From a virus (taxonomy: Duplodnaviria > Caudoviricetes): a stretch of 61,974 nt of DNA. Below the pieces are notes generated by a model. It saw only the letters and a program-made list of their open reading frames with translations. It was not told where the DNA came from and did not search any database. The position numbers and the translations under genes were made by a program. Every line of letters starts with the position of its first letter. The first letter of the stretch is position 1. The stretch lies in the IMG/VR virus record IMGVR_UViG_3300046167_000270, positions 1-61,974 of that record. The stretch is one strand, 5' to 3'. Shown here one piece after another: positions 10,172 to 31,028 of this stretch.

Positions 10172-10172
10172 T

Positions 10173-12482: not shown

Positions 12483-13167
12483 ATGAGACAATTAAATTTA
12501 AAAATGCAAATGAAGCTTTTAACTTTTACTATGGTGTTATACCGTATGAAGGTAAAAAGTTTGACAATACAATGGCAATGTTTAATCAAGGCTTTACTAT
12601 TGAAAATCCATTAGATCGTATAATAACCAATGAAGCTAGAAACTTTAATATTGAGTATGCTGAAGCTGAATGGCAATGGTATTTATCAGGTGAGCCTACT
12701 ATAGAAACTCTTGGTAGTATATATGGTAAGATACCTCAGATATGGCAAAAGATGGCTGATGAAAATGGTAAGGTTAACTCTAACTACGGTGCGCAATGGG
12801 AAAGAGGCTGGCAGCTAGATAAAGTTGTAGCTATGTTAAAGAATAATCCTAATACTAGACAAGCTGCAATATCTATATATGATGGCAAAGAAATATCTAG
12901 CTATAAATATGATACGCCTTGTACATACGCTGTACAGTTTACAGTTGTTGATAATAAATTAAATATGTGCGTTACGATGCGATCTAATGATTTGTGGTTT
13001 GGTTTCTGTAATGATCAATATCAATTCAGTAAACTGCAAGAGATGGTCTGTAGACGAACTGATACGAAATGGGTACATACTATCATTTTGCACATAACTT
13101 ACACATATATAATGATAAATTGCCTGAAAAAAATACGTTAACATCAAGAGCTAGAACATATGGATAA
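12483..13167 (+). CDS. Thymidylate-synthase-family enzyme, T4 gp42 (dCMP hydroxymethylase)-like; frameshifted near both ends
   Basis: NSNYG, DTPCT, MRSNDLWFGFCND, and HNLHIY in a shifted frame. Confidence 0.85.
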
Positions 13168-14044
13168 AATTAATTATTATTTATACCATATACCGGGTAA
13201 AAAAATAGGTGTTACACGTGATCTTATATCTAGAGTCGTAGACCAACAAGGCTACAGCTTAGACGAAGTAGAAGTTCTAGAACAAAGTACAGATATTGAT
13301 TATATATCTGACCGCGAGTTAGAACTTCAACAGTCTTACGGCTATCGAGTTGACAGACAAAAATATAAAGATCTATATATTAATAAAATAAAATCTAATA
13401 CAATGCACATAAACGCGACAGAGCAGACTTCTACGTTCCCTTGTCCATCTACCAAACTAAAAGGTAGACTAATGGATAACATGGGTAAATCATGGGATAC
13501 GATGCATGGTGAATTTGAAATCAACATGGATACGATTGCTTGGATAATGGATAATGTTAAGACATCCATGTACACTACAGAAAGATCTTACATATATAAC
13601 AAAGCGTTTGCTAAATACTTTCAAGTTAAAAACCACGCTGAAGAAGCTGAAAGATTTCCATTTGGCAAAGATGCTTACCAAGCTTATTTAGATACTTTAA
13701 CAACTAGATATAATAGTAATGGCAACTGGAGATATGACAGCAATGAAAGCGAAAGGTTTCAAAAGATAAGAGACTGGGCAGGCGAAAGAGGTCTTTATAC
13801 TAAAGGCGATACTAAAACACAGTTTTGTAAGTTAATGGAAGAAGCAGGTGAACTAGGTAGAGCAGTACTAAAAGATGATAAAGAAGAGTTTGTAGATGCT
13901 ATTGGCGATATGGTAGTTGTATTAACTAACATGGCTCATCTTGGCGGTACAACAATTGAAAAGTGTATAGACACTGCATACAAGGTTATTTCTAAACGTA
14001 CTGGTAAAATGGTTAACGGAACATTTGTTAAAGATGAAAAGTAA
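13160..14044 (+). CDS. Fusion: GIY-YIG-like N-terminus plus C-terminal MazG NTP pyrophosphohydrolase
   Basis: YYLY..KIGVT..R..E; KLMEEAGEL..DAIGD. Confidence 0.8.
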   Translation: MDKINYYLYHIPGKKIGVTRDLISRVVDQQGYSLDEVEVLEQSTDIDYISDRELELQQSYGYRVDRQKYKDLYINKIKSNTMHINATEQTSTFPCPSTKLKGRLMDNMGKSWDTMHGEFEINMDTIAWIMDNVKTSMYTTERSYIYNKAFAKYFQVKNHAEEAERFPFGKDAYQAYLDTLTTRYNSNGNWRYDSNESERFQKIRDWAGERGLYTKGDTKTQFCKLMEEAGELGRAVLKDDKEEFVDAIGDMVVVLTNMAHLGGTTIEKCIDTAYKVISKRTGKMVNGTFVKDEK

Positions 14045-14895: not shown

Positions 14896-15120
14896 ATGAA
14901 AGAAAGTACTCTGCTGGAAATGCAGAATAAATTAAAATCGTTGACCAATGTAGTTCAACATATGATGAATGATAATATGCACTTAAAAGACTTGAGTGTA
15001 GGAACATTAGAAACAGTAAAGCTTATGCCTGGATATGATAAAGCTATAGAATTTCTAAAAAAAGAATTAACAAATAAAAAAGAAAACAAAGATGGAGTTA
15101 AGCAACAAGATACTAAGTGA
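14896..15120 (+). CDS. Hypothetical protein
   Basis: ORF track. Confidence 0.7.
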   Translation: MKESTLLEMQNKLKSLTNVVQHMMNDNMHLKDLSVGTLETVKLMPGYDKAIEFLKKELTNKKENKDGVKQQDTK

Positions 15121-16954
15121 TATAACAGTTTATATGAAGTATGCTAAATTCGTACCTGAGTTAAACCGTAGAGAGACTTGGGCTGAATTAGTTACAAGAA
15201 ATAAAAACATGCATATTAAAAAGTACCCTGCATTAACTGACCAAATTGAAGAAGCTTACAAATTAGTATATGAAAAGAAGATTTTACCGTCTATGCGATC
15301 ACTACAATTTGGAGGTAAGCCTATTGAGATCTCGCCTAATCGAGTCTATAATTGTGCTTATTTACCTATTGATAGCATTGAGTGTTTTCATGAAATAATG
15401 TTTTTATTATTAGGTGGAACCGGAGTAGGTTACTCTGTACAACAGCACCACGTAGCTAAATTACCTATAGTTAATAAACCTTATGTTAAAAGAACTAGAA
15501 GGTTTTTAATTGGTGATAGTATAGAAGGATGGGCTGACGCTATTAAAGTCCTTATGAAGTCTTATATGGGCGATAAGAGATCATCTAGCGTACAGTTTGA
15601 TTTTTCTGATATTAGACCAAAGGGAGCTCAGTTAGTTACATCTGGAGGTAAAGCGCCAGGGCCTCAACCATTAAAAGAGTGTATACTAAAAATTAAAGGT
15701 ATATTTGATGGCAAGGAAGATGGAACACCATTAACAACTTTAGAAGCACACGACATTGTTTGTCATATTGCTGATGCTGTATTAGCAGGTGGTATACGTA
15801 GAGCAGCTTTAATTAGTTTGTTTTCCGCGGGTGACGACGAAATGATAGCAGCTAAATCTGGTAATTGGTGGGAGACAGATCCACAAAGAGGTAGATCAAA
15901 TAATTCTGCTGTTCTTATGAGACATAAAGTTACTAAAGAGTTTTTTATGGATCTATGGAAACGTGTAGAACTATCAGGATCAGGTGAACCAGGTATTTAT
16001 CTTAACAATGATAAAGACTGGGGTACAAATCCTTGTTGTGAAATAGCATTAAGACCTTTTCAGTTTTGTAATTTATGTGAGGTAAATGCTAGTGATCTTG
16101 AATCACAAGAAGATTTTAACGATAGAGTTAAGAAAGCAAGCTTTATAGGTACACTACAAGCGGGTTATACTGACTTTCATTATTTAAGAGACGTATGGAG
16201 AGATACGACAGAGAAGGACGCCCTTATCGGTGTATCAATGACAGGAATAGGGAGTGCCGCTGTGCTGCAGTTGGATATGAAGGCCGCTGCAAGTATAGTA
16301 AAAAGAGAGAATACAAAAACAGCTAAAGCAATTGGTATTAATTCAGCTGCAAGATGTACAACCGTAAAGCCTGCTGGGACGACATCTCTGGCATTAGGAA
16401 CTTCATCTGGTATTCATGCATGGCATAATGATTATTACACGCGTAGAATCAGAGTTGGTAAAAACGAATCTATGTATAAATACTTAGCGGAAAATCACCC
16501 TGAGTTAGTTGAAGATGAATTTTTTAGACCTCACGACACTGCTGTGATTAGTATACCACAGAAAGCACCTAAAGGTTCTATACTAAGAGATGAATCGCCA
16601 TTTGATTTATTTGAAAGAATAAAGAAAGTAGCTCAAGAGTGGATTGTACCTGGTCACAGGAAAGGGTCTAATACTCACAATGTATCTGCAACTGTTAGTT
16701 TAAAGCAAGAAGAGTGGGATGCAGCAGGTAAATGGATGTGGGAGAACAGAGAGCATTATAATGGCTTATCTGTATTACCTTATGACGGAGGTACTTATAC
16801 TCAAGCACCTTTTGAAGATATAAGTAAAGTTAACTATGATATGGCTATGACACATTTAAAAAATGTTGATCTAACTAGAATATCAGAAACTGAAGATGAA
16901 ACAGATCTTTCAGGTGAACTAGCTTGTGCGGGAGGCGCATGTGAAATAACATGA
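15092..16954 (+). CDS. nrdJ: Class II (adenosylcobalamin-dependent) ribonucleotide reductase
   Basis: YNCA, GTGVG, TNPCCEI, TTVKPAGT, C-terminal CAGGACE; no beta-subunit gene. Confidence 0.92.
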   Translation: MELSNKILSDITVYMKYAKFVPELNRRETWAELVTRNKNMHIKKYPALTDQIEEAYKLVYEKKILPSMRSLQFGGKPIEISPNRVYNCAYLPIDSIECFHEIMFLLLGGTGVGYSVQQHHVAKLPIVNKPYVKRTRRFLIGDSIEGWADAIKVLMKSYMGDKRSSSVQFDFSDIRPKGAQLVTSGGKAPGPQPLKECILKIKGIFDGKEDGTPLTTLEAHDIVCHIADAVLAGGIRRAALISLFSAGDDEMIAAKSGNWWETDPQRGRSNNSAVLMRHKVTKEFFMDLWKRVELSGSGEPGIYLNNDKDWGTNPCCEIALRPFQFCNLCEVNASDLESQEDFNDRVKKASFIGTLQAGYTDFHYLRDVWRDTTEKDALIGVSMTGIGSAAVLQLDMKAAASIVKRENTKTAKAIGINSAARCTTVKPAGTTSLALGTSSGIHAWHNDYYTRRIRVGKNESMYKYLAENHPELVEDEFFRPHDTAVISIPQKAPKGSILRDESPFDLFERIKKVAQEWIVPGHRKGSNTHNVSATVSLKQEEWDAAGKWMWENREHYNGLSVLPYDGGTYTQAPFEDISKVNYDMAMTHLKNVDLTRISETEDETDLSGELACAGGACEIT

Positions 16955-17189: not shown

Positions 17190-17237
17190 GGTTACAGGAA
17201 CTTTTGGGTATGGTGCCCAGTTTTATTGTGTTCCTCG

Positions 17238-20200
17238 TTATTTTGGACGACCTTTACCTATAAACTCAAGTGGTTCTTTTTTCTTTGGCTTTGGTTTAGC
17301 CGAATCTTTTCTACCGTCTGGATTTATTTGCCACTCTGGCCAACCAGCTAACATAGCAACAGACTGCCACCATTCAGTCTCTTCGTCCATAGCTGCTTCT
17401 ATATTTTGCATTTTTAACAATACTCTATCTAGCGGGACGTTAGTAACTGCAGAGACAACTTTAGTCGTAGCTTCATAACCTGGATTATCTAATCCAAAAT
17501 CTTCCATAGCTTTTTTCCTACGTTTCTTACTGTCTAAATTCCACGCAGCTTGTCTAAGTTTAGATATTTTAGAACTTATAGGTGGAGAAAACTGTAGTAA
17601 TTTATATATAGAATCAACATATTCAGGTCTGCTTCTTCCAGATCTTTCGTAAATATCTAACAAAAAGTTTTTAGCTACAGCTACTGCAGCACCTCCCATG
17701 CCTAATCCTCTTAATATAGAGTCGGCCATACCATTAGCTACACCTATAGCTTTTTTAACTTCTTGCTCATCATCATCTTCACTGTTAGCAGCTAAAGCAA
17801 ATACCGCTTGTTGAAGCATGTTAAACATTAAGTTTTGAACAACTCCATAATATATTATTTTACTAACGTTTGCTTTGTTATCGCCTCTTCCTGCTGCTAG
17901 ATCTTGAAAAGCTCTTTTCTGCATACGAGCATACTGCATAGGTGTGTTGGCATAAGCTAGTATCAAACGACCAGCATCACTAGATTGTTGCTGAGATATT
18001 CTCATTGGATCAGAAGACTGTTGAGACTCTTCAGCTTTTTCTCTAAACTCTAACATAGCTTGAGCATCTGCTTCTTTCTGTGTCATTTCAGGATTGTTCT
18101 TCATTAGGTCAGCTGATCTATTACGAAAATAAGTAGCACCACCTAAAGCTATAGCAAAGCTATCAGCAAATTGTGTAGGTGCATATCCTTTAGAAAGTAT
18201 ATATGATATAGCTGCTTGAGCTTTATTGCCACTAGTGTTTGCAGCGTTAGCTATTTCATTTTCAGATATATTAATTCTCATACCGTTTCTACGATCAACT
18301 AGAAAATCAGAGTTCATTAACATCATGAAGTCAGACCAATATTGTTTTTGATTAGCAAAAGCTTTACCAGCTTTAATAGGATTATTAAAACTCCAGTTTA
18401 TAAAGTTAGCACTAGATAAAGTTTGAAGCACTGCAGATCTTATGTTTAAGAACATAACAACACCATTAGCATTATTAATATAATCAAGTATTCTGTTGCT
18501 TAATCTATTTCCACTAGCTAACCTGTTTTTACCTTGCTTCATTCTTTCAAGAACATTTTTTAAAGCTTCTACATATTTTGTACCATAAGCAGCTTCTAAT
18601 TTATTTAAATTTTCTTGTGAAAATATTACATCAACATTTCTTTGCCACTCTTCTAAATACTTTCTTCTAACACCTTTATTTACTCCATCTATAAGATCAG
18701 TAGTTATTGTACCAGCTAACCAACTTTCACTTGGAGCGTTATACTCAAATGTTTTGTTTAGTTTCATTATCTCGTCAGCAAATGTCTTAAGATTTTGATT
18801 AGCCTCTATTATATCTAATAGCTCTTTAGTATCTCCTTTAGATAAACCTGGTACAGTCATACCTTGCTTATTCCATATATATACTCTTACAGCTTGCTCG
18901 TTACTAAAGCCAGACTTGTTAGTTTTCTTTAAATCTTTAGGAACATCTAAATCTTCTTTAAGCTTTTTAAAATCTTCAAACATGTTTTTTCTAAAAGTAG
19001 ATAAATTATTTGATGCTCTAGTGTAAGGATCCATTAACCTTTCTTTAAACCACTTCATGGCTGAATTACCTTTAGCACCTTTAGGAAGTATAGGATATAT
19101 AAGACCTAAGAAGTCTTCAGCAGAATAAGGTATAAAGAATTTAAACCTACCTTTCTTAGCTCCAACGATTTTACCTTTAGCCTCTGAATATCTAGACTCA
19201 CTTCTAATACCTGTAGCTTCTTCAACTATTCTATTAAAGTCCTCGTTTATATCAGCTTCTAAACTCATTTTAGCTTGTTGTACTTTAGACTTAACATCTA
19301 ATACAGACATTGCATCTCTCACCGCTTTAACATTTTGCAAAGCATCGTCAGCAAAATAAAAATCATTATAACCTTCTGCTGCTTTATTAACTAGCCAGTT
19401 AGCTTTAGCAGCGCCAGTAGAGTTACCTAATCCTGTTATATTTTTTAAAGGTAAGTTTAATCCTACACTATCTAAAAACTCTTTAATAGCAACTTGAGCT
19501 TCAGGAGCTCTAGCTGTTAATACAAACACGTCCTCTGTACCTCTTGCTGCTTGTATCTTTTTAGCTATATCTAATAATGGACCTGGTTTTCCTTTAGTTA
19601 CTTTATTAAACTCACTAAAATCAAACTTATAACCTTGATCTAATAATGTTTTACCTTGAGTAGCAAACTCTTCTGCATTTAACTTACCTTTAGTACCGTC
19701 AGGTGCTGTAAATAAAACGTCTGACTCTGTAGTAGCTAATGTATCATCAAAATCAAATACTCTAATTTTTCTGACAGGAGCTTTAATATCTCTACCTACA
19801 TTTAAAGCATCATCTACTGTAGCTGCATAACCTATTATATCTTCATTAGTTTCCATAGAAGCTTTAACAACGTTGTTATCTAGCGCAGTTACATTAGCTT
19901 GTTTAGCTTGCTGTATACTATTCCATAATTTAGCAGGACCTACAGACTCTTTAACTATTTTACCTGTTTGTATATTAAACAACTCTGTAACTTCACCACC
20001 AATAGTAAACTCATTAAACCATCTAGTGAGTGGAGTATCACCATATTGATAAGTTAATGGCATAGATGCTTTAAAAAAGTTACCAAAGTTGTCATCAAAA
20101 CCTTTTGATATAACACCCACTTGATAACTGTCTTTTAATTTGCTTAAGCTAATCTCTTTGTTTTTGCCAAATACAGCATCAGCTATCATTAAGTTCATCA

Positions 20201-23200
20201 CAGATGAAGGTATGCCATGCTCATACTCAAATAACTTACCTACGTTATTATTATTGTAACCTTTAGTATCTATGTTTGTTGGCACATAAGTTAATCTACC
20301 AGCAGCTCTCATAGGCCCTTTCATGTTATCATTAAAGCCTTTCATTAACATAGCTGCATTTTCTTTAGTTGCAGTTTTGTCTTTTAACATTTTATCTACA
20401 GTCTTGTAGTAAGTTGTAATAAAATTCCAAGCTCTATCAGAATAATCATTTCTACCATCTACTTCTTTCTGAGACATGTTATTTGTAACCATGTCCATAG
20501 TAGTTTTCTGTGCATATCTTTTAGGTGATAGAACTTCCCTAGTAGTTCCATCTTTCATTTTAAACTCTAAAGTAGTTACTCCAGACTTATTTGTTTTGAA
20601 TTTATAATCTACAATATCAAAATTGTTTTCAATAAGCTCTTTATTAAAAACTTCAACATGTCCACCATTGCCAGACTCATTGCCATAAGTCATATTTCTT
20701 TTTAATCCACCGTCTTCAAAACCTCCTTTAAACAATATAAAATCAGCAGCTAAATCTAGTTTGCTTTTACCTTGCTTAGCATAAGCATTTACTAATTTAG
20801 GTATAGATACGTTTATAAAAGCTTTTTGCCTTTGTCTACCTTCAGGAGTAAATAAATTACCAACACTAATGCTGTTTCCATCTGCATCTTTTAAATTCCA
20901 GAACTTATTTAAAGTAGTACTTTCATCAGCATTTAAACTTCCATCTATATAAGACTTTAAAGGAAAATCAGTTATGCCTTCGTATTCTACTACTTGTTTT
21001 CCAAACTTGTTTATTAATGGAGTGTATAAGTCTACTAACTTAGTTATTTCAGGTCTACTTAGATTATCACTATATATACCTTCTATAATACTTCTAACTT
21101 GTTTTTTAGTTTCTTTAATATCTTTAGCAAATCCAACGTTGTAACCGGTATCAAGCAATAGTTTAATCAACTTGTCTTTGTCTTCCATATATATTCCAAA
21201 GTTGTTAGCTGTTGGATTTTTCATTTCAGAAAACTGTCTCTCTACTTCTTTAGATAACTTAGACTGAACACCTCTATCTATAGCAGAAGCCATTACTTGC
21301 ACAACATCATCAGCTACTAGATAATTTAACTCAGGGTTTCTATTAGTAATTTTATCTATAGTATCTTGCTCTGTCATTACCTGCATAGTACCATCAAAAC
21401 CGTATGTCTTAGCTAAGTTTTTAATTAATGCTTCGTCTCTACCTCTTTTCTTAAAGAAGTCTAAAAAAGCTTGATCACTAGGCATTAATCTTGAGTAAAG
21501 ATTAGGTCCTGACTTTGGATTAGAATATACTAATCTACCTGTGCCTTCATATCTTTTTATATCTTCTGGACTTAAATTTTTACGATCTAATGAAGTAAAT
21601 ATTTTATCTTTAGATAATCTTTCCATGGCTACTAAATCAGCTATAGAAAGTTTATTTACTATAGCGTTTCTAAGATCTAATAATCTTTGATCATAACCAG
21701 GTTTTCCTTTACCTAGTGATTCTTTTATATTATCATAAAGTATAGACTCATACTGAGCAGCTATATTATTTCTAAAATCTTTTATTATTCTTGTATAATC
21801 TAATTCAGCTTGTTGAAACTCTTTTCTACTTATTGAGTCTTTGTTTTTTAATATAGCTCTAACGTCTTTTAAACTAACTAAAACATCTGCTTGGCCTTTC
21901 TTTTTTCTAACATACTCTAGCTTTGGCAATTTAGTACCTAATACTAGCTCGTTAGCTCTAAGTATAGCATTGTACATATCAGAGCCTGGTAAAACGCCTG
22001 ATTCTCTAGTAAAGTTTAATTCTTCTGGTATGTTAACTTCCTCTGCCGCTACTGGATCAAACTGTCTTCTACCTTCTACTTGAGCATCTATGTCTACTGT
22101 ATTTTTTGGAGCAGCACCTTTAGCCATTTGTTTTCTAGCATCACCAACTTTAAATGGCGCATAGTTACCCATGTAAGCAGCTATAGGATTTTTAGCAGTT
22201 AATTGAGTTTCAGGATTCATTGCTAGCAAGTGATTTAAAAAAGGACCTGTTATAGTAGTCATTGCTAATTCTGGATCGAAGCCTGATAATTGCATCACCT
22301 GATCTATCCAGTCTCTACTAATATCTTCAAACAACTGTGCGCCTTCAGGAGTTAAAGTACCTCCATCTCTTAACTTAACACCATCGACTAACATGTATTT
22401 TTCGTAGTCGTCTCTAGTCATTGTTCTAAATGTCTTATCAAATATATCTCTATATTTTATATTTCTATCTTCTTGTTCTTTAGAGGTTTTTGGCTTTTGT
22501 TTTTTTGGACCTTTACTTACTATACTATTAATAGTAGACAATACTGTTGGCGCTAAAGCTTCTGAAGATCTAGCATCTGCAATGTCTTGCTCTGTTAAAG
22601 TACCAGTACCTATTTTCTTAGCTAAGCCAACTAAAAACGAAACAGCGTCAGTTTCTCCTTTAAAATTAACTTCAAAACCTTTTTCTTTTGTAGTATTATT
22701 AGACATAAAACCAAATAAACTAGCTAGCTTTTTATTTTTCTTTTGGTTAAAATCTATATTACCTTGATCTACCTGTTCTAAAAATTCTATTACAAACTCT
22801 TCTGCTTGAATTTTAGTAGTTGCACCGACACTCATTTTTTGTCTTATAACATTTAGCATATCAATATCTTCTTTTCCTAGATAATCTGATATAGCTTGTG
22901 CTAATTGACTAAAATCTCCATCTCCAGTTTGCAATATTTCCTTAAATACAGCATGGCCAGGTTCATGTATGCCTATAGAAGTTCTATCATTTTTAACAGA
23001 GTTTTCTAATATAACAAATTGCTGGCCGTTTATATTATCTAAACCGTTTAGTGTTCCATCTTTTATAGCTTGTATTTGAGCAGCTTTATCTTGTTCTGAT
23101 AGGTTTTCAGCGTTTTTAACTAGATCAATTGCCTCAGCGTTTGTTTTAGCAATTCGTATATCAACACCATAACTATTCTGAGCAGAAGCTACTTTATCTA

Positions 23201-26126
23201 GTATAACTTGTTCTGTGTAAATATCATAAGCAACATCTTGAACTTCTTTAATTTCTGGAGTAAAATCTGGATTTTCATTTTTCTTTATCCTTATCTTCTC
23301 TTTAGCATCAGCCATTATAGAATTATATCTATCAGGATCTGTTTGCTCTAGTAATTTAAAAGTATTTTTAAAAGCTTTATTGTTTCTAAAAAGATCTCTT
23401 GCATATTGTGTAGCATCAAACTTTTCTTTTAAGTCATTTAATAATTCTTGTTTCTTATCTTTGCTAAGTCCTGGATCATTATAAATGTCTTGTGCTTGCT
23501 TTTTTAAAGCCTCTTGTTCTTGAGTAGCTCTATTAAATCTTTTCCACCCATCTTTACCCATGTTATTTTCCATCTCACTAACCATACCTTTCAATATGTC
23601 TTGAGACTTTGCTTCTAAATCTGCTTTCTTTTTTCTAAGTATTTCTTTAGAAGATTCACTTATTAAATCGTTTTTAAGAAGCTTGTTTATACTAGAAACA
23701 TCTTTTATAACATTATTATACTCATCATATTTTTTAGGATCACTAAACTTTTGTAAAGCCATACCATACATTACTGGAGATACTGACATACCAAAACCGA
23801 ACATACCACCAGAAAACATAGCGTGATCAACATTGTCTAGCAAGCCTACGCCGTCTAACATGTTTTGAGTCATCTGAGTTAATCCTTCACCTACAGCTTC
23901 TGATAAAGGATCTTGTATTAAAATTCTTTTACCTTGCTCTTTCCAAGTTTGTTTTATTGCTTGATTAAAGTTTAACAAGCTTTCACCACCCGCAGCACTT
24001 AAATAGCTTTTACCACGCTTAAGTATTTGAACTGTAGTCAATGCTTCAAACACTGCTTCTGCAGCACCATAACCTGCCGATACACCAAACTTAACAAGTT
24101 CATTTCTTTCAAAACCAGATCTTAAATCTTCTTGATCCATTTCCATATACTTCTCTCCAGCAGCATAAGCACCTATTATATATGGTGATGCGGTACCACC
24201 TGAAGCTATTATAGTAGCAAGTATAGGTAATTGTTGCCCCATTTCTTGAGTCATAAACCTACCAAAAGCAGCTGGTCCACTTGTAAAAGCACGATCAAAA
24301 CTTACGTCTTTAGCATACTGATCTCTGCTCATGTTCTTCCAGTCAGTAAATCTAGTAGCTGTTTCATCTAATAAACCACCAATTGATTTAGATACAATAT
24401 TTTCTTCTTCTAAAGTTTTATCACCTGATATTTCTTCAGCTAAATAAGTTCCACCTTGAATAACTTTACCTACTCCATAAGCTAAACCAGCCCCTATAGA
24501 TGCAAATCCTGAACCTACATTATATTGAAACTTACTCCAACTATTATAATCTCTACGTAGTAAATCAAACTGTGCGTCTATGTTTTTTAAGTTGTCTGTT
24601 TCAGCATCAATTCTAGATTGTCTATCTTGCAGTCTAGCATACTTATCTCTTAAATTCTTAGATGATGTAAGGTATTTATCAAAAGCTTCTTTAGAAACAG
24701 TTTTACCATTTCTAAGTTTTATAGCTTCTTGACCTTCTTCAATTATAAATTGCTTACTATTATCTAAATATATTTTTTCAAAGTCTTCTACTATAACTCT
24801 ATCACCTTCTGAAGCTGACGAATTATAATCTGCTAATTCTACTTCTTGAAGCTTTTGTAGTCCAGCGGCTTTTTTAAATGATCGATCTTCTTCAACAGCC
24901 TTATAAGCTTTAAGAATACCTTGCATTTCATCATCATTAGCTTCTAAGTAATCAGTCCACTTATCATCTTGAAGTTTGTTGTATTTTTTATTGTATATTA
25001 TTTTTCTAGCAGCATCTTTTATTTCAGCTTCAGTAGCAGCTGGCAGTTGATCGTCTATAGATCTTTTTTTATTTTCTACTGCTCTAGCGTCATTGAGCAT
25101 TTTCTCAGCGGCATTTAATTCTTTTTCGTATGGATTTACAACAACTTGTTTAGTTTGCTGAACCATAAAATCACCCATAGCTGTTGGACCTCCTCCATAT
25201 ATTGCTACGTCTTCAGTGTAAGGTTCAAATAAATCTATACGTTCAGATTCTTTTTCTATTTCAGCAGCCTCAGCATCTGTAACGTTTACAATGCTATTTA
25301 TTCTTTTGGTTTCCTCTGATATTTTTTTATCTGTTTCATCATATAGTTTTGCATCATAACCGTTAGTATCTACAAATTTTATAATATCACTCTTCATCTT
25401 AGTAACAGATCCAGATCCAATATCGCCATCTACACCGTCTTTTACATCACTTATAAATGTAGTTTCTCCGTTAGGAGCTGTCATTGTTATACCTACGTTT
25501 GTTCCTCCTCCAATGTCAAAACCAAAAAATTTATTTTCATCTGCTATTTCAAAACCATAATCAGGGTACATAGTTTTCAAAGCATCTACTGTAGCACCAT
25601 AATCTCCTCCATTCATTTTCTCATATTGAGAAAAAGTCTCTGTAGTACTTTCATTGTCTAACCAGTCGTGTATACCTCTACCGCTAGATGTTTCAGGATT
25701 TTTACTATTAGCTAATAGCTGTCTATCATTTCTTTTTTGCTCTGCTAAAGCTAGATCTTTTAATCTTTGCTCGTTAAGTTGTTTTGTTTTAGTATCAACT
25801 ACATTTTCATCTACAACATAACTACTATACAGTTCTTTATCAGATTCAGTTACATCTAAATTACTTATTTGCTCATCATAACTTAAATTAATGTTTTTAA
25901 TTTCTGTATCATAATCTGACAAAACGTTTTCCGCAGTTAAGTCTGTGTCCATAGATTCTAAAACAGCTTCGTCTTCTTGCGCTAGATTAATTGCGGTTTC
26001 CTCTGCGGTCTCTTGCTCTTCCACTTGTTCTCCTAAAGTAGCAGTGGGAAATTTTTCAAGAAACTCTTCTTCTCTATTAGGAGCCACATTGTATCTTACT
26101 CCGTCTACAATATAAATTTTATTCAT
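17238..26126 (-). CDS. Giant internal virion/ejection (polyvalent) protein with zincin-like and HAD domains
   Basis: 2962 aa; HEPGH..EEF; DFDDT/TAR/ADD HAD motifs; last gene of the structural module. Confidence 0.85.
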   Translation of the reverse strand: MNKIYIVDGVRYNVAPNREEEFLEKFPTATLGEQVEEQETAEETAINLAQEDEAVLESMDTDLTAENVLSDYDTEIKNINLSYDEQISNLDVTESDKELYSSYVVDENVVDTKTKQLNEQRLKDLALAEQKRNDRQLLANSKNPETSSGRGIHDWLDNESTTETFSQYEKMNGGDYGATVDALKTMYPDYGFEIADENKFFGFDIGGGTNVGITMTAPNGETTFISDVKDGVDGDIGSGSVTKMKSDIIKFVDTNGYDAKLYDETDKKISEETKRINSIVNVTDAEAAEIEKESERIDLFEPYTEDVAIYGGGPTAMGDFMVQQTKQVVVNPYEKELNAAEKMLNDARAVENKKRSIDDQLPAATEAEIKDAARKIIYNKKYNKLQDDKWTDYLEANDDEMQGILKAYKAVEEDRSFKKAAGLQKLQEVELADYNSSASEGDRVIVEDFEKIYLDNSKQFIIEEGQEAIKLRNGKTVSKEAFDKYLTSSKNLRDKYARLQDRQSRIDAETDNLKNIDAQFDLLRRDYNSWSKFQYNVGSGFASIGAGLAYGVGKVIQGGTYLAEEISGDKTLEEENIVSKSIGGLLDETATRFTDWKNMSRDQYAKDVSFDRAFTSGPAAFGRFMTQEMGQQLPILATIIASGGTASPYIIGAYAAGEKYMEMDQEDLRSGFERNELVKFGVSAGYGAAEAVFEALTTVQILKRGKSYLSAAGGESLLNFNQAIKQTWKEQGKRILIQDPLSEAVGEGLTQMTQNMLDGVGLLDNVDHAMFSGGMFGFGMSVSPVMYGMALQKFSDPKKYDEYNNVIKDVSSINKLLKNDLISESSKEILRKKKADLEAKSQDILKGMVSEMENNMGKDGWKRFNRATQEQEALKKQAQDIYNDPGLSKDKKQELLNDLKEKFDATQYARDLFRNNKAFKNTFKLLEQTDPDRYNSIMADAKEKIRIKKNENPDFTPEIKEVQDVAYDIYTEQVILDKVASAQNSYGVDIRIAKTNAEAIDLVKNAENLSEQDKAAQIQAIKDGTLNGLDNINGQQFVILENSVKNDRTSIGIHEPGHAVFKEILQTGDGDFSQLAQAISDYLGKEDIDMLNVIRQKMSVGATTKIQAEEFVIEFLEQVDQGNIDFNQKKNKKLASLFGFMSNNTTKEKGFEVNFKGETDAVSFLVGLAKKIGTGTLTEQDIADARSSEALAPTVLSTINSIVSKGPKKQKPKTSKEQEDRNIKYRDIFDKTFRTMTRDDYEKYMLVDGVKLRDGGTLTPEGAQLFEDISRDWIDQVMQLSGFDPELAMTTITGPFLNHLLAMNPETQLTAKNPIAAYMGNYAPFKVGDARKQMAKGAAPKNTVDIDAQVEGRRQFDPVAAEEVNIPEELNFTRESGVLPGSDMYNAILRANELVLGTKLPKLEYVRKKKGQADVLVSLKDVRAILKNKDSISRKEFQQAELDYTRIIKDFRNNIAAQYESILYDNIKESLGKGKPGYDQRLLDLRNAIVNKLSIADLVAMERLSKDKIFTSLDRKNLSPEDIKRYEGTGRLVYSNPKSGPNLYSRLMPSDQAFLDFFKKRGRDEALIKNLAKTYGFDGTMQVMTEQDTIDKITNRNPELNYLVADDVVQVMASAIDRGVQSKLSKEVERQFSEMKNPTANNFGIYMEDKDKLIKLLLDTGYNVGFAKDIKETKKQVRSIIEGIYSDNLSRPEITKLVDLYTPLINKFGKQVVEYEGITDFPLKSYIDGSLNADESTTLNKFWNLKDADGNSISVGNLFTPEGRQRQKAFINVSIPKLVNAYAKQGKSKLDLAADFILFKGGFEDGGLKRNMTYGNESGNGGHVEVFNKELIENNFDIVDYKFKTNKSGVTTLEFKMKDGTTREVLSPKRYAQKTTMDMVTNNMSQKEVDGRNDYSDRAWNFITTYYKTVDKMLKDKTATKENAAMLMKGFNDNMKGPMRAAGRLTYVPTNIDTKGYNNNNVGKLFEYEHGIPSSVMNLMIADAVFGKNKEISLSKLKDSYQVGVISKGFDDNFGNFFKASMPLTYQYGDTPLTRWFNEFTIGGEVTELFNIQTGKIVKESVGPAKLWNSIQQAKQANVTALDNNVVKASMETNEDIIGYAATVDDALNVGRDIKAPVRKIRVFDFDDTLATTESDVLFTAPDGTKGKLNAEEFATQGKTLLDQGYKFDFSEFNKVTKGKPGPLLDIAKKIQAARGTEDVFVLTARAPEAQVAIKEFLDSVGLNLPLKNITGLGNSTGAAKANWLVNKAAEGYNDFYFADDALQNVKAVRDAMSVLDVKSKVQQAKMSLEADINEDFNRIVEEATGIRSESRYSEAKGKIVGAKKGRFKFFIPYSAEDFLGLIYPILPKGAKGNSAMKWFKERLMDPYTRASNNLSTFRKNMFEDFKKLKEDLDVPKDLKKTNKSGFSNEQAVRVYIWNKQGMTVPGLSKGDTKELLDIIEANQNLKTFADEIMKLNKTFEYNAPSESWLAGTITTDLIDGVNKGVRRKYLEEWQRNVDVIFSQENLNKLEAAYGTKYVEALKNVLERMKQGKNRLASGNRLSNRILDYINNANGVVMFLNIRSAVLQTLSSANFINWSFNNPIKAGKAFANQKQYWSDFMMLMNSDFLVDRRNGMRINISENEIANAANTSGNKAQAAISYILSKGYAPTQFADSFAIALGGATYFRNRSADLMKNNPEMTQKEADAQAMLEFREKAEESQQSSDPMRISQQQSSDAGRLILAYANTPMQYARMQKRAFQDLAAGRGDNKANVSKIIYYGVVQNLMFNMLQQAVFALAANSEDDDEQEVKKAIGVANGMADSILRGLGMGGAAVAVAKNFLLDIYERSGRSRPEYVDSIYKLLQFSPPISSKISKLRQAAWNLDSKKRRKKAMEDFGLDNPGYEATTKVVSAVTNVPLDRVLLKMQNIEAAMDEETEWWQSVAMLAGWPEWQINPDGRKDSAKPKPKKKEPLEFIGKGRPK

Positions 26127-26132
26127 ATATTA

Positions 26133-27845
26133 TTATTTTGCAAAAGAATTGTTTACTGTTTGAGTTTTAAGGTAGTTTTGAGCTTCATCATCTATTCCTA
26201 TAGCACTAGCAACTCTTTCTGTAAGTACATCTGGATTATCAGTCATTACATACTCTTTTGTCATTATTATAACAGGCTTGTATACAATTTCTGGATCTTC
26301 TTTTGTTTTGCCTCTATAAGGAACTAACCTGTAAATAGCTTCACTTTTTAAAGGAGGTTTTGCTTGATCTTGACCGTTTTTATCTAGTAACAACGTGGCG
26401 TCATATCCGTTTATGTAATTATAACCTTTACCTAGATCTTTTTGAGGTATATTACTATTCATTTCTTCAGTAATAGCATCAAGTCTGTTAAAGTACTGTT
26501 TATTATTTACCTCGCCAGTTTTATCATCGTATGTAAGTGGATAATTTTTAATTATCGTAGGAGAGTTATCACTAACAGCATTATAATATCTTTTCTCAGC
26601 TTCATATTTTCTTCTATCAGCATCACTTATTGACGAACCTGTTCCAGGTTTAGTTGTGCCTGCATCAGCTCTAGTAATATTTGTTATTTGATCTTCAGCA
26701 GGTACCATAGTGCCTGAGTAGTAGTTAGCCAAACCTTCTCTAGCTGTAGACATTACTTCCTTTTGTAAAAACTGTTTATCATCGTCATTTACAACACCAT
26801 CTCCAGTTAGATCACCATATGATTCACTAAATTGATCAAATGTCATTGATTTAATTTTTTTAAACTCACCCCAAGACATCTCCGCAGCAGGACTACTTTC
26901 ACCTTCATCGCTTTTTAAATAACCACCTCTCCAAAGTTGATCCCATGTTTTTTCAAATCCAGGACCTTTTATTTCAGAGTCTAATCTATTAGAATATGTA
27001 TTCATTAAAGCGTCTTTAACTTCGTCTCTATCGTAAACTTCTTTTGTTACAGTTTTCCATTTACCAGTTGTAGCATTATAAGTTCTATTAGTTTCAGTTT
27101 TCTTTTTAAAATAAGTATTATATCCAGTATTTTTATCAGTCCAATTAGGATTTAATTTGTTTTCTAATAAATCCTCTTTTTTAATTTGACTATACCACTC
27201 ATTACCAGCTTTGTTGTCTGCTACATCTGCACTTAAATTTCTATTGTCACTAGCTAAAATATTACCATCAGCATCAACATTTTGTGCATTTAATAATACA
27301 TTACCTTTTTCATCTATAGAAAAGTTATACTGACTATACTGATCGTTCTGCATGTTTTGAGAAAAAGAATATTTATCTGTATCGTTGCTTCTTGTCATTC
27401 TACCCAAGTCTATATCTTGCTCATGAGCAGATTGGTTCTCTTGCATTGCTGTGGCGTTGCTATTACTTATAGTTGCCCATGCTCCTACTTGTGATAATAT
27501 TTGTTTGTCTCTTATTTGTCTAAGTCTCCAGTTGTGTTTATCTTCTGCAGTTCCATTAGAACTAAAAGCTTTAGTATATAGCTCTTCTTGCTCACTAGCT
27601 AGTTTACCGACTAACAAGCTAGCACCACTATTCCAAGCTTCAGTACCTGACTTTGTTTGATCTCCATATAGTTTATAAAAATCATCAGTATATTGTTGAC
27701 CTTTTCTAACTATTTCTTCAGCTTTTCTGTTTTTTACTTCTTGCTCTTTAGCAAGCTTTTGAAGCACGTTATTTATCTGTGATGCTGTTGACTGATTTTG
27801 TCTTGCAGCCATCTCAGCTGCTTTAGTTATGTAGGTTAATGCCAT
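26133..27845 (-). CDS. Putative internal virion (ejection) protein
   Basis: Position and helical N-terminus. Confidence 0.7.
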   Translation of the reverse strand: MALTYITKAAEMAARQNQSTASQINNVLQKLAKEQEVKNRKAEEIVRKGQQYTDDFYKLYGDQTKSGTEAWNSGASLLVGKLASEQEELYTKAFSSNGTAEDKHNWRLRQIRDKQILSQVGAWATISNSNATAMQENQSAHEQDIDLGRMTRSNDTDKYSFSQNMQNDQYSQYNFSIDEKGNVLLNAQNVDADGNILASDNRNLSADVADNKAGNEWYSQIKKEDLLENKLNPNWTDKNTGYNTYFKKKTETNRTYNATTGKWKTVTKEVYDRDEVKDALMNTYSNRLDSEIKGPGFEKTWDQLWRGGYLKSDEGESSPAAEMSWGEFKKIKSMTFDQFSESYGDLTGDGVVNDDDKQFLQKEVMSTAREGLANYYSGTMVPAEDQITNITRADAGTTKPGTGSSISDADRRKYEAEKRYYNAVSDNSPTIIKNYPLTYDDKTGEVNNKQYFNRLDAITEEMNSNIPQKDLGKGYNYINGYDATLLLDKNGQDQAKPPLKSEAIYRLVPYRGKTKEDPEIVYKPVIIMTKEYVMTDNPDVLTERVASAIGIDDEAQNYLKTQTVNNSFAK

Positions 27846-27846
27846 T

Positions 27847-28737
27847 TTATATTAGTTCTAGGTTAACGTCAATTTCAGAATAATCAACTAATTCATATCC
27901 AGACTTATCTTTCCATACAGAAGTTTTAGGAAGCATAGGATCAAAAGACATAACTCCTTTAAACTTGCCGTGTCCATATTTAAATTTATTTATATATTCA
28001 AAAGTATATATATTTAAACCGCTACCAGATTTACCTACTAGTTCTATATTTTCTTTTAATCTAATATCACTACCAGCAATTGCCATACCAGCATTAGTTA
28101 TTCCACCTACTAACGCTTCAGTAGCAGCATCTCCGTAAGCTATTTCTTGTTGTTTATAAAAATCTTCTTTTTCTTCTACTCTAGCTAAGTCAGCAGTTGT
28201 TCTATCTTCTTGTCTGCTATACGCGTTTCCTTCTTCAGCAAAAGCAGCTTGTTGTATTGCTATTCTTTGTTTATTAGCGTCTGCTTCGCCTTGAGCTTTT
28301 TGCTTAGCATTAGCGACTTCTTGTTTTTCTATACTAGAAGCAATACCTTTTTTACTTTGTAAGGCAGCTCTAGCTAATGCAGTTGCACCACCAGCAGAAG
28401 CACCGGATGATGTCATAGCATCTAAAGTGTTTGCTAAAGCCATATCTGTTTGCTCGGCTTCAAACTCTGCAGCTGCTGTTGATACTGCTAGGTTTTCGTA
28501 AGGGTTACTTACTTGAGCAGCTAAAGCTCTAATATCATCAGCTTGATTTAAAACTGGCTGTCTATTAGCTCTCATCATTTTAGCTTCAGCTTCTCGCTCT
28601 GCAGACTCCTCAGCTGCGTCTTTCTTTTTTTTATTATTTATTCCAGCAGACACACCACCAGCTACTAAAGCTGTGGCCCCTGCTACAATTGCCGCGACAC
28701 CTACAGTGGCCTGCATATAAACTATTTCTAATATCAT
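27847..28737 (-). CDS. Putative DNA-pilot/ejection protein with C-terminal peptidase S74 domain
   Basis: Ala/Gly hydrophobic N-terminus, coiled coil, SDIRLKENI. Confidence 0.75.
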   Translation of the reverse strand: MILEIVYMQATVGVAAIVAGATALVAGGVSAGINNKKKKDAAEESAEREAEAKMMRANRQPVLNQADDIRALAAQVSNPYENLAVSTAAAEFEAEQTDMALANTLDAMTSSGASAGGATALARAALQSKKGIASSIEKQEVANAKQKAQGEADANKQRIAIQQAAFAEEGNAYSRQEDRTTADLARVEEKEDFYKQQEIAYGDAATEALVGGITNAGMAIAGSDIRLKENIELVGKSGSGLNIYTFEYINKFKYGHGKFKGVMSFDPMLPKTSVWKDKSGYELVDYSEIDVNLELI

Positions 28738-29237
28738 ATTTCTAGTTTTGGATGATTATAATTTTCACTAGTAACATCTTTAATAACATCTTCAACGTTT
28801 GTTTTGTCAGTTGGATGTACTGTTACCCATACACATTCTTCATCAATGTATAAAATTCTTTGTGTTCCTGGCTCTGTCATACCATGATGAGGAGCTTTTA
28901 TTTTAGTTAAACCTTTGTCTGAAACTACGGTGCATTCACCTGACATAACAAAATAAGGATGTCTTACTAAATGTATAGCACTAAGATATATCATACCTTT
29001 AGGCATTGTTATTTTTCTAATATAAGTACCTTCACCAAAATCATGCTCTAGTTTTCCACCATTGAAAGTATCTAATTCATCATTTTCTTTGTAAGACTTT
29101 CTAACTACAGAGCCTTCAAAATCTCTTATATTGTTTTGAAACTCAGTTATTTTTTCTCTAAATCCTATTTTATCAATTTCAAATTTACTTGCTAGTGAAA
29201 TAATGTCAGTAAGATTATCACTTGTTTTTTTATTCAT
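28734..29237 (-). CDS. Cupin-fold protein
   Basis: HDFGEGTYIRKITMPKG..IH..HP..GTQR..WVTVH. Confidence 0.7.
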   Translation of the reverse strand: MNKKTSDNLTDIISLASKFEIDKIGFREKITEFQNNIRDFEGSVVRKSYKENDELDTFNGGKLEHDFGEGTYIRKITMPKGMIYLSAIHLVRHPYFVMSGECTVVSDKGLTKIKAPHHGMTEPGTQRILYIDEECVWVTVHPTDKTNVEDVIKDVTSENYNHPKLEI

Positions 29238-29247
29238 TTAATTATAT

Positions 29248-31023
29248 TTAAGTCGAAGATACTATGTACTCAGATCCAGTAGCCCATAATTCTTTTACAC
29301 CTCCTAGTTCAGTACTATTATCTGTTTCTACAGTTACAGTTGCAAAATAACCTTTTATACCTGTCATATCTGCGCCAAACCTAACTTCACCTGGAGTTAC
29401 CGTAGAACTATTAACTATATTAGCTACATATCTATCTTCTTTTCTATCAAAACCAGCTCTTTGAGGTTGACCAGTAATTAAGTCAGTATAAAGACCTTCA
29501 TCGTAACTGTATATAAAAGAAGATGTATCTTGATCGTTAGAGTATAAACCTGTGTTTATGTTTAAGTTAGGCTCTGTAAAGCTAGAAACAAATGATGTTA
29601 CTTCCCAGCCACTGCTACCTTCATAATCTATTGTTTTAAACACCTTAACTGTAGAAGGTGAAGGATTAAAAACAAAAGTAACATTAGAAGGTTCTCTTAC
29701 ACCATAATATAGACCCCTATTGTTTGAAGTAGTTTCATCATAATGTTCATATAAGTCCGCGTTTGTAAAAGAATAAAAATTATTCTTTAAACTATTCATC
29801 ATTGCTGGTTTAAAAGTTTTAAAACTTACCCAACCTTTTATACTCTCATCAAAAGTTAAAGTTCTATAAGTATTCTTATTGTATGTATCAATTTGAGTAG
29901 GCGTATCTTGCATTGATACTAAATAGTTTTTATTATGTATATCCCAACCTCCAACAACTCTAGTTCTGTATGGATATGAAAACCTAAACTTAACATTGGA
30001 ACCAGCAGCTTGAGACACCCCAAGAGGAGAAGACATATAAACAGTAGAAGTAGTAACATTTATATCACTAACTTGCGTAACGTAACCTGGTAAATTTTGA
30101 AATACAGGATTAGCAACAGTAATATCTGGACAAAAAGAAACTATCATACCAGGTGTGATTGATGTAGATTCAAAAGAAGATGTTAATGAAGCATTAGACA
30201 TTATTATAGTTACATTAGCCGCAACAGTAGCGCTCTTTAAAGAGCCTTCAACAACGAAGTTTCTATTTTCAGATGACATTAAAGCTAGTTGATCTCTAAA
30301 GTAATCTGTCATACCATAAGCACTTATTTCAGTTAAACCGTCGTTTGAGAGTCTCATTATAGCATTTCTATCCTTGTCTGCAAAATATTTTCTATAACCG
30401 TAAACTGCAAAACTTTCTGGATTTTTGCTTATACCGTATTCTCCTTTATAAGGAACTATTTGACCTAAAATTCTTTGACCAGCTTGAGTCTGGGTACCAC
30501 CCTCGGTTGTATATATAGTATCTTTATCTATTAACGCTCTACTTACTTTGTCTTCTTGAAATACTATTAAGTTAGTATCTTCAGCATATATTCTCTGTAT
30601 AGAACCGTTTTGAGGATCTGCTGATCTAACTAAATCTTCAGCTACAGAAAATACATTTGTGTCATTAACACCTGTTCTTGAGTTATAAACACCTGAATAT
30701 ATTAATGAATTAAATCTGTGTTGCTGCTGAGGTTGTGGTTCATTTATATAGGCTTTTACACCTTTATCAGTAGCTTTGTTATTGTAACCACCTCTTATTC
30801 TAGATTCTTCAACGTAATAATTAAAATCAGAGTTAGTTATAGTACCAGGGTAAGCTACACCAGGGGCTAATGGGTAACCATCAGCTGGTATTAACATACC
30901 GCCAGGTACATTTGTTGAATTAGGCAAAGATTGTGGTGTTGTCAAATCTGATGCAAAATTATCATCTACGCCTTTTTTTAATAAATACGTGTTAAACCAA
31001 TCTATTTCTATAACTGTTGCCAT
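29248..31023 (-). CDS. Tail muzzle/stabilisation protein, C-terminal-like part
   Basis: VEESRIRGG, YGISKNPESF, KVFKTIDYEG, GIKGYF. Confidence 0.75.
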   Translation of the reverse strand: MATVIEIDWFNTYLLKKGVDDNFASDLTTPQSLPNSTNVPGGMLIPADGYPLAPGVAYPGTITNSDFNYYVEESRIRGGYNNKATDKGVKAYINEPQPQQQHRFNSLIYSGVYNSRTGVNDTNVFSVAEDLVRSADPQNGSIQRIYAEDTNLIVFQEDKVSRALIDKDTIYTTEGGTQTQAGQRILGQIVPYKGEYGISKNPESFAVYGYRKYFADKDRNAIMRLSNDGLTEISAYGMTDYFRDQLALMSSENRNFVVEGSLKSATVAANVTIIMSNASLTSSFESTSITPGMIVSFCPDITVANPVFQNLPGYVTQVSDINVTTSTVYMSSPLGVSQAAGSNVKFRFSYPYRTRVVGGWDIHNKNYLVSMQDTPTQIDTYNKNTYRTLTFDESIKGWVSFKTFKPAMMNSLKNNFYSFTNADLYEHYDETTSNNRGLYYGVREPSNVTFVFNPSPSTVKVFKTIDYEGSSGWEVTSFVSSFTEPNLNINTGLYSNDQDTSSFIYSYDEGLYTDLITGQPQRAGFDRKEDRYVANIVNSSTVTPGEVRFGADMTGIKGYFATVTVETDNSTELGGVKELWATGSEYIVSST

Positions 31024-31028
31024 ATTAA

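Follow-up and report, generated by a model that had tools for sequence, protein, structure and literature searches.

Polyvalent proteins, as described by Iyer et al. (2017; J Bacteriol, PMC5512222), are single giant polypeptides in which unrelated enzymatic modules accompany one zincin-like domain with an HExxH...E motif. Their modules are extensively shuffled, they are predicted to be delivered with the virion, and their metallopeptidase domain (MPTase) is predicted to process them into functional units. Another giant polyvalent protein with a metallopeptidase domain, gp47 (2,811 amino acids, aa) of the Stx podophage phi24B, was identified by proteomics among the virion proteins and has no counterpart in the cryo-EM density; an ejection role is proposed for it by the authors of that study (bioRxiv 10.64898/2026.04.10.717836). 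In PhicrAss001, the genes for cargo proteins gp45-gp50 are described as lying directly downstream of the muzzle/tail genes, and mass spectrometry detected their products in virions (Bayfield et al. 2023, Nature, PMC10172136). Here we analyze IMG/VR virus record IMGVR_UViG_3300046167_000270 (61,974 bases, ~98% complete by estimate), the whole of which we call the window. Its open reading frame (ORF) at 17238-26126 on the minus strand, 2,962 codons open, encodes a 2,962-aa protein that matches only itself within the record. This giant shares the listed features of the polyvalent proteins, including several unrelated catalytic or binding domains that are shuffled among relatives, and by architecture it belongs with the phage-type members of that class.

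The giant carries a conserved HExxH...E zincin motif, and a short element with a conserved Lys and Ser recurs in it at module boundaries and at sites of insertion, where the neighboring residues vary in concert within each protein. We infer that the giant is packaged in virions and cleaved, and likewise which protease cuts it, at which bond and when. We tentatively propose a polyvalent cargo or ejection protein whose junctions are cut by its own zincin, a reading that we consider possible but short of probable. The giant would be made and packaged as a single chain, with one targeting signal and a fixed stoichiometry; the junctions would serve as proteolytic processing sites, at which the zincin would set the modules free by cutting. 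For a zincin of the thermolysin type, the hydrophobic residue that precedes the Ser would make a plausible P1'.

The zincin-like domain spans aa ~985-1125 (22752..23174; all features of the giant are on the minus strand), as delimited by an AlphaFold2 (AF2) model and by conservation. HEPGH (aa 1054-1058, 22953-22967) lies in a predicted helix (aa 1051-1065) and the near-invariant E1110 (22797-22799) in the next one (aa 1104-1120), so that the model places HExxH and a third-ligand Glu as in gluzincins. With only seven His in the protein, two of them in HEPGH (Cys is absent), and exactly one HExxH in 109 of 120 homologues, the motif is far beyond chance; a single HExxH is likewise present in 110 of 118 representatives of at least 2,000 aa. 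H1054, E1055, H1058 and E1110 are near-invariant in two alignments, in a region otherwise only 17-40% identical. The AF2 model of aa 800-1960 (1,161 residues) has a mean predicted local distance difference test (pLDDT) score of 75. In it, strands at aa 990-993, 1028-1032 and 1035-1039 are followed by the HExxH helix and then by the E1110 helix, with pLDDT 83-91. Judged from the order of secondary structure elements, this predicted core has the three-stranded sheet expected before the active-site helix, and it is the strand-helix-helix arrangement that Iyer et al. (2017, PMC5512222) give for the core of the polyvalent-protein MPTase. The profile of the family zincin also aligned by hhalign with the first HEFGH domain of the giant encoded by the complete 60.9-kb podophage genome MW202828.1 (probability 95%, E=1.8e-8).

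Other searches weigh against zincin membership. Neither Pfam nor a sequence profile search of the PDB matched the domain, and Foldseek comparison of the whole 1,161-residue model with the PDB returned no known zincin at E<=0.001, in a search that was swamped by helical-repeat proteins and in which a multi-domain query may have masked a domain-level match. By hhalign, the family zincin profile did not significantly match N4 gp50 residues 2080-2420 (C1; E=0.18, probability 0.3%), and it matched the zincin of Elemovirus gp21 with a probability of 5.8%. Foldseek matches in BFVD were weak (best E 1.2e-3); they include an Elemovirus "structural protein" (probability 1.00 over 237 columns) and several "Large polyvalent protein associated domain-containing" proteins (probability 0.47-0.89). 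As a lead only, ESM Atlas gave LPD23 on 18% of the members of one cluster for this part of the protein. The preliminary description of this sequence had seen a zincin motif in HEPGH, and the conserved HExxH...E motif and modelled core support its prediction as a zincin-like metallopeptidase domain.

The same description had proposed that, after injection, effector cassettes are released at a shared K-x-S-x-E linker motif. The five matches are KISEE in the N-terminal part (aa 268, 25311-25325), KTSKE (aa 1213, 22476-22490), KLSKE (junction A, aa 1623-1627, 21246-21260), KASME (junction B, aa 2088-2092, 19851-19865) and KMSLE (junction C, aa 2286-2290, 19257-19271); all were placed exactly, as was HEPGH at aa 1054. 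Five KxSxE matches compare with 1.2 expected, a number reached in 0.6% of 2,000 shuffles. However, KxSxE ranks only 26th among all a.b.c patterns, and a shuffled sequence averages 17.8 patterns that are equally or more extreme. Across the 120 homologues, K.S.E occurs 206 times against 178 +/- 13 expected. We therefore dropped enrichment of KxSxE as evidence, the count being significant neither after multiple testing nor family-wide. Such counts would suit a functionless KxSxE, driven by composition in a protein rich in Lys, Ser and Glu, with three matches conserved only through their surroundings. Consistent with this explanation, the motif is retained at aa 268 in only 11 of 49 aligned homologues (the 11 closest) and at aa 1213 in 16, and junction C lies within the most conserved stretch of the protein. 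Against it, the Lys and Ser of junction A are near-invariant where the surroundings are not.

On these alignments, what is non-random is position and conservation, at aa 1623, 2088 and 2286 only. The pattern [KRQ]-hydrophobic-S is present at junction A in 44 of the 49 homologues, at junction B in 26 and at junction C in 46. Outside the query clade the sites read KFSK, KFSE, KFSS or KFSG. The conserved core thus appears to be [K/R]-[F/L/M]-S-[K/E] ("KFSK"), of which KxSxE would be the variant of the query clade. In 120 proteins, which are mutually related, the pattern [KR][FLM]S[KE] is found 249 times where 82.5 +/- 7.7 would be expected. K1623 and S1625 belong to a set of only 13 near-invariant residues in aa 800-1960, alongside the metal ligands, and in the alignments they are about as invariant as the zinc ligands of HExxH...E. 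The site at aa 268 looks like chance, and that at aa 1213, where distant members read S-x-S-E-T/A-E-E, is clade-specific. The idea of a shared linker motif therefore holds for three conserved junctions and fails for the other two matches and for the Glu; lack of conservation, named beforehand as grounds for abandoning the idea, was found at aa 268 and 1213 and largely not at junctions A to C. Several of these results weigh against a cleavage code. The family does not conserve the Glu of KxSxE, and the motif of junction B is kept in little more than half of the aligned homologues. In the widest sample, junction C reads DVKSKVQQA[KR]-x(1-3)-S-[KE], with only the Ser and the following K/E general, and a narrower regular expression detects it in only 44 of the 118 representatives.

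The conserved sites fall where the family is recombined. BLAST maps demonstrated that the C-terminal ~870 aa, comprising a haloacid dehalogenase (HAD) phosphatase and a C-terminal domain, are 50-69% identical across the family, and that upstream parts are swapped wholesale. Relatives add a P-loop kinase, DUF6934 cassettes and other N-terminal or middle modules. Internal ends of BLAST high-scoring segment pairs (HSPs) cluster in seven windows of the query: q1170-1229 (14 ends), q1350-1379, q1620-1679, q1950-1979 (20 starts), q2070-2099 (28 starts and 6 ends), q2130-2159 and q2280-2309. Four of these coincide with the four C-terminal motif sites. These maps and breakpoints show a strongly modular protein, which supports that part of the earlier interpretation. 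As in viral polyproteins, a short motif thus recurs at module boundaries, with three conserved junctions located at breakpoints and insertions.

Predicted structure gives a similar, less uniform, picture. In the AF2 models, the site at aa 1213 closes a low-confidence linker (aa 1189-1213), junction A closes a coil (aa 1616-1626) directly before a helix, and junction B closes a linker (aa 2058-2091). Junction C lies just past a dip in pLDDT (aa 2279-2283) at the boundary between the HAD and C-terminal domains. By a strict DSSP criterion, coil runs of at least eight residues reach three of the four modelled sites, each at a coil-to-helix transition (P(>=3/4)=0.05, with 24.8% of all positions touching such a run). 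The proposed comparison of AlphaFold boundaries with motif positions therefore came out in favor of these three sites. Junction C, which is inside a predicted helix, and the moderate pLDDT (64-73) of the coil at junction A weigh against cleavage sites, as do the predicted linkers at aa 1129-1160, 1336-1369, 1729-1736 and 1948-1979, which do not contain the motif; the motif is accordingly not a universal linker.

The same models suggest an alternative in which the junctions are conserved but uncut, and serve as structural connectors of a beads-on-a-string cargo protein. They could cap helices, act as hinges or docking sites, or signal that the chain is to unfold and refold in order as it passes through the tail, while the zincin acts on peptidoglycan or host proteins. 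As connectors of this kind might, all four modelled sites immediately precede the first helix of the following module or fall within it, and none is in the middle of a linker. However, capping or a hinge does not obviously explain why the Lys and Ser of junction A are near-invariant to the same degree as metal ligands, and connectors would leave the linkers that have no motif to be accounted for.

Alignment of homologues for cassette swaps, suggested in the preliminary description as a check, showed that the three conserved sites are inter-module junctions. Among all fetched proteins, the C-terminal third contains 30 insertions of at least 60 aa relative to the query: nine in the HAD cap, six at junction B and 15 at junction C. 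In 21 of 21 insertions at junctions B and C, the local junction element is copied on both flanks. An example at junction B reads ...NNVVK-x-SMES-x-ED-L [cassette] ...P-V-KASMETNEDII, and one at junction C reads ...QQAK-x-KFS [cassette] ...VLDVVDVKSKVQQAK-x-KFS. The six insertions at junction B, all in close homologues, are of a DUF6934 cassette. This ~135-aa mobile cassette was identified as Pfam DUF6934 (34.4 bits in locus L015, cut-off 27) and is present in 25 of 367 fetched proteins, at junction B, at junction C or elsewhere, and twice in protein P0196. Examples are located at 10604-11821 of L015 and at aa ~2097-2243 of protein P0002; L015 has two tandem cassettes, each of which ends in K[LF]SKQSK. 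Duplicated junctions at every insertion are difficult to reconcile with a composition-driven motif. They are compatible with structural connectors, since an inserted cassette would carry or duplicate a junction if each module needs one at its N-terminus. The duplication at junction C takes in ~20 residues (VLDVVDVKSKVQQAKxKFS), including the last HAD helix. It exceeds a typical protease site, which weighs against cleavage and favors connectors. No DNA repeat that could mark recombination links the junctions in the window, so the likeness of the junctions is at the protein level.

Junction sites also recur outside the aligned positions. Locus L014 encodes six KFSK[SN] sites and locus L018 four [IV]KFSE[ST] sites, at non-homologous positions. 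As judged from these sequences, the motif variant is homogeneous within a protein and differs between clades. Across 74 distinct combinations, junctions B and C have the same residue at the hydrophobic position, at S+1 and at S+2 in 37, 30 and 23 cases, against shuffled means of 27.1, 17.6 and 12.2; the observed values were reached in 0, 0 and 4 of 5,000 shuffles. This co-variation appears supportive rather than decisive because the rows are phylogenetically related and detection of junction B is noisy. Concerted change across junctions within a protein is not obviously explained by structural connectors. Recurrence at non-homologous positions and co-variation both argue against a functionless motif, an explanation that we now consider very unlikely.

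The members of the family whose zincin is degenerate bear on the proposal that the junctions are cut by the giant's own protease. Eight full-length homologues and four of 91 giant ORFs in viral contigs do not have HExxH and keep two to four KFSK sites. At the equivalent place the HExxH-less members carry EEL[FY]H, and hhalign aligned them weakly with the Glu helix (probability 40%, E=3e-4). An intact zincin in cis is therefore not required for conservation of the motif, which weighs against self-processing; either a modified zincin suffices or the junction motif is independent of the zincin. Structural connectors would account for persistence of the motif in these members, and several descriptions of related systems point the same way. 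The N4 virion RNA polymerase, which has a zincin-like domain, is reported to be packaged unprocessed (Iyer et al. 2017, PMC5512222). The authors of the gp47 study propose that its peptidase degrades peptidoglycan (bioRxiv 10.64898/2026.04.10.717836), and the crAss001 cargo is thought to be ejected partially unfolded as whole chains (PMC10172136). The first two of these reports also count directly against self-processing.

No natural gene split at a junction was found among 101 viral loci, which also weighs against self-processing, and the giant ORF is intact in 91 of the 101. Apparent splits were examined and rejected as internal-start calls or artifacts. P0170 and similar proteins of ~880 aa start exactly after junction B, and viral-contig copies 88% identical to them lie within intact ORFs of ~3,250 aa. 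The giant gene is broken into two or three ORFs in IMG/VR contigs L051 (~9700-9730) and L087 (~7050-7090 and ~10000-10190). These breaks are duplication or frameshift/assembly artifacts and are not at junctions; in L051, an artifact is indicated because one ORF ends with a ~35-aa stretch with which the following ORF begins again. The intact ORF counts in favor of connectors, and overall we consider uncut structural connectors a possible explanation, though one we would not call probable.

Another explanation is that the junctions are cut, but by other means: a distinct protease of the phage or the host could act while the head matures or once ejection has taken place, or the Ser could undergo an N-to-O acyl shift. 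Prohead proteases cut at sites such as L/I-x-E (T4 gp21) and S/A/G-x-E (phiKZ gp175), and an N-to-O acyl shift breaks the bond between a hydrophobic residue and Ser, as in the HFS sites of Nup98 and PIDD. The Ser is the most conserved residue of the junctions and follows an aromatic or hydrophobic residue, the motif is kept in members with EExxH in place of HExxH, and the query-clade junctions read S-x-E as do phiKZ sites and resemble those of T4 gp21. However, the P1 Glu of T4- and phiKZ-type enzymes is not conserved here outside the close clade, and PHROGs and Pfam detected no protease family among the other window ORFs scanned; a separate prohead protease was accordingly rejected as a candidate. 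In T4 and phiKZ many head proteins carry cleavage sites, whereas the 13 other virion ORFs of the window contain four KxSxE matches in 6,739 aa and are not enriched. This is in keeping with a protease specific to the giant and not with one that acts across the head. For autoproteolysis, an acyl shift normally requires a dedicated fold around the site, and the upstream contexts of the junctions are unrelated modules. Cleavage by a separate enzyme or by acyl shift therefore seems quite unlikely.

Returning to cleavage by the giant's own zincin, the steps of the proposal differ in strength. The junction element is probably functional, and the chances that it is cut by something appear about even. 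That the embedded zincin makes the cut is more doubtful, and we would put this clearly below an even chance. A stronger version, in which K-hydrophobic-Ser is a cleavage code read by the giant's own zincin and the family is a true bacteriophage polyprotein whose cassettes move with their cleavage sites, is in our view unlikely. The interpretation first put forward from the sequence is thus partly supported.

The remaining modules of the giant were characterized from motifs, profiles and models. An acidic, variable N-terminal region (aa 1-520, 24567..26126), which contains KISEE, is followed by a glycine-rich hydrophobic module (aa ~530-800, 23727..24539) whose strongest hydrophobic 19-mer is at aa 633-651. 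A helical module with no family assignment (aa 1214-1622, 21261..22487) precedes junction A. The next module (aa 1628-2087, 19866..21245), likewise helical and unassigned, contains E-x-E-H-x-x-P (EYEHGIP, aa 1967-1973, 20208-20228), in which E, H and P are near-invariant, and is shared among relatives from ~q1955. In some relatives an H-x-H motif comes first (HWHKLGAQ or HPHRMGAE). We take this arrangement to resemble an HNH or other metal-dependent nuclease motif; Pfam gave no match to the module.

The HAD phosphatase (aa 2093-2285, 19272..19850) is identified by its motifs, by PHROGs, by AF2 and by Foldseek. Motif I is DFDDT (2125), motif II VLTAR (2202), the Lys lies in GAAKANW (2238-2244) and motif IV is FADDA (2258). 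The only PHROGs match of the giant is phrog_415, "polynucleotide kinase" (aa 2118-2296, E=3.5e-6), and the isolated segment matched Pfam DUF2608 (23.5 bits, cut-off 22.6). AF2 predicted an alternating strand-helix fold at aa ~2094-2277 (pLDDT 65-84), which Foldseek aligned with class C acid phosphatases and AphA (probability 0.80-0.94, with weak E values of at least 0.087). Assignment to the HAD superfamily is sound, and the type is that of polynucleotide phosphatases or acid phosphatases. The claim that the sites at 2088 and 2286 bracket the HAD domain is confirmed by the phrog_415 match, motif I and the predicted fold. In nine homologues (P0049, P0056, P0057, P0134, P0139, P0141, P0144, P0150 and P0196), a ~200-aa P-loop kinase (PF13671 AAA_33/PF06414 Zeta_toxin/PF07931) is inserted in the HAD cap at q2143-2146. 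This insertion makes a kinase-phosphatase pair and hints that the job of the HAD module is perhaps nucleic-acid end healing.

The C-terminal domain (aa 2291-2962, 17241..19256) is the most conserved part of the giant, is always C-terminal in the matched giants of at least 2,000 aa, and has many invariant polar residues. It is predicted to be all-helical, with an acidic stretch between hydrophobic helices, and the AF2 model is poor beyond aa ~2740. The pattern of hydrophobic helix, acidic stretch (DDDE) and helix is also found in the dissimilar C-termini of the MW202828 and Elemovirus giants. ESM Atlas gave, as leads only, LPD39 (28% of cluster members) and LPD38 (88%). A capsid-targeting, a channel-forming or an enzymatic role would each fit.

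Searches with the giant demonstrated a large family with few named relatives. The whole protein has no Pfam match at E<=1, eight segments of it matched no LPD or MPTase-PolyVal model, and the only match among 16 diverse family members was the kinase in one of them. A tblastn search of 50,697 deposited phage records with the whole protein and with its C-terminal 662 aa found no match, and thus no cultured relative carrying the family. In metagenomic protein collections, a word-indexed search returned 1,682 matches to the giant, and a phmmer search of 1.84 billion representatives with the C-terminal 672 aa returned 2,270 clusters (at 50% identity) at E<=0.001, 1,545 of them at E<=1e-30. The family is common in marine metagenomes and viromes.

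The gene for the giant closes a minus-strand virion operon, where virion cargo and ejection proteins are encoded, as the preliminary description had supposed in calling it an ejection protein. In order, the operon encodes the large terminase (TerL, 44370-46595) and the portal (41953-44367). After a 386-aa ORF with no PHROG or Pfam match (40768-41928), it continues with a major capsid protein (MCP)-like virion protein (39244-40746), an adaptor-like protein, a 1,518-aa virion protein and a 591-aa virion protein with a crassvirus muzzle C-terminal domain (29248-31023; 48.5 bits, cut-off 27). A short fiber-like protein, two unassigned proteins and the giant complete it. By its position between the portal and MCP-like genes, the 386-aa ORF could encode a scaffolding protein or a protease-scaffold fusion, which bears on the question of a head protease. 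The giant gene faces a convergent plus-strand gene for a class II ribonucleotide reductase, whose end is at 16954, and the gap between the two contains a terminator-like hairpin (17204-17220). The reductase, which is of the B12-dependent class, forms part of a plus-strand replication and nucleotide module (15092-16954, 13160-14044 and 10778-11923) that also includes a MazG-like pyrophosphatase and a primase/helicase. No tRNA genes were found in the window.

The terminase shares 64% identity with that of MW202828.1 and 45% with that of Flavobacterium phage Elemovirus; Cellulophaga, Tenacibaculum and Maribacter phages match as well. At the equivalent position MW202828.1 encodes a 3,859-aa giant with two HEFGH motifs (741-12320 of locus L002), and Elemovirus (NC_055852.1) encodes gp21, a 3,694-aa "structural protein" with one HExxH (20564-31648 of locus L003). 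The sole BLAST match between the query and gp21 (24.6% over 370 aa, E=1e-6) is in the glycine-rich hydrophobic module; otherwise both giants are nearly unrelated to the query in sequence. The annotation of the MW202828 giant as "reticulocyte binding/rhoptry protein" is surely a spurious transfer. This phage group thus conserves a giant gene at the end of its virion operon, one that evolves extremely fast outside a few modules. The position of the gene at the end of the structural operon, together with the syntenic "structural protein" genes of relatives, makes a virion-packaged cargo or ejection protein a reasonable inference by analogy. The phage encodes a GroEL-like chaperonin (55835-57379, minus strand; phrog_5725, E=3.5e-129) and a GroES-like co-chaperonin (46812-47405, minus strand; phrog_13932, E=3e-20), and Elemovirus also has a GroES gene beside its terminase gene. 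A phage-encoded chaperonin could aid the folding of giant virion proteins. The best explanation of the record is an uncultured marine podophage of Bacteroidota, kin to Elemovirus and the Cellulophaga podophages, with a crassvirus-type muzzle domain.

The junction motif offers a concrete, mutable candidate cleavage site for the processing hypothesis put forward for polyvalent proteins in 2017. If the proposal is true, the HAD/kinase end-healing module, DUF6934 and the HNH-like module would be releasable, exchangeable effector cassettes, and protease and sites would co-evolve clade by clade, as KxSxE here and as KFSK or KFSE elsewhere. A functional assignment would annotate a sizeable part of marine viral dark matter, given 2,270 clusters with neither a Pfam model nor a match in deposited phage records, and would also show which enzymes Bacteroidota phages inject first.

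Compared with described systems, the HAD module shares its DxDxT, T, K and DD motifs with the "DDDD" group, which includes T4 polynucleotide kinase/phosphatase and the class B and C acid phosphatases. Here it is one module of a putative virion protein and stands without a kinase in the query, while the kinase-phosphatase pair of the nine homologues is reminiscent of T4 Pnk. With regard to prohead proteases, the query clade shares S-x-E with phiKZ gp175 sites, but the family differs from T4 gp21 and phiKZ gp175 substrates in conserved P1 Glu, in the occurrence of the motif in other head proteins and in a protease gene.

As in PhicrAss001, where cargo genes follow the muzzle, the giant is encoded downstream of a protein with the muzzle C-terminal domain. 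The genome here is ~62 kb compared with ~100 kb for PhicrAss001, and one giant stands in place of five cargo proteins. N4 gp50 (C1) is an ejected giant protein, as is proposed for the giant here, and in both a conserved HExxH precedes a large helical C-terminal region of unknown fold (Nat Commun 2026, PMC13434306). It differs in having an RNA polymerase module; an RNA polymerase within the giant, as in crAss phages or N4, was considered and rejected, Foldseek against the PDB and BFVD giving no sign of such a fold. The likeness to phi24B gp47 is by description only: gp47 carries Pfam LPD5, LPD1, LPD38 and MuF-C, none of which Pfam detects in the giant.

The closest likeness in architecture is to the polyvalent proteins. 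The modules differ (HAD, DUF6934 and P-loop kinase here, versus the ART, SNF2, methylase and ArdC set stressed by Iyer et al. 2017), and we class the giant as a variant rather than a recognized member because the curated LPD and MPTase-PolyVal models do not match it. The main text of that paper, supplements aside, does not mention a recurrent junction motif, and the word "linker" occurs 0 times in it (PMC5512222). Neither a motif of this kind nor a proposed cleavage site turned up in our literature searches on polyvalent proteins. Processing by the zincin has thus been proposed already, and the new element is a recurrent junction motif tied to cassette boundaries.

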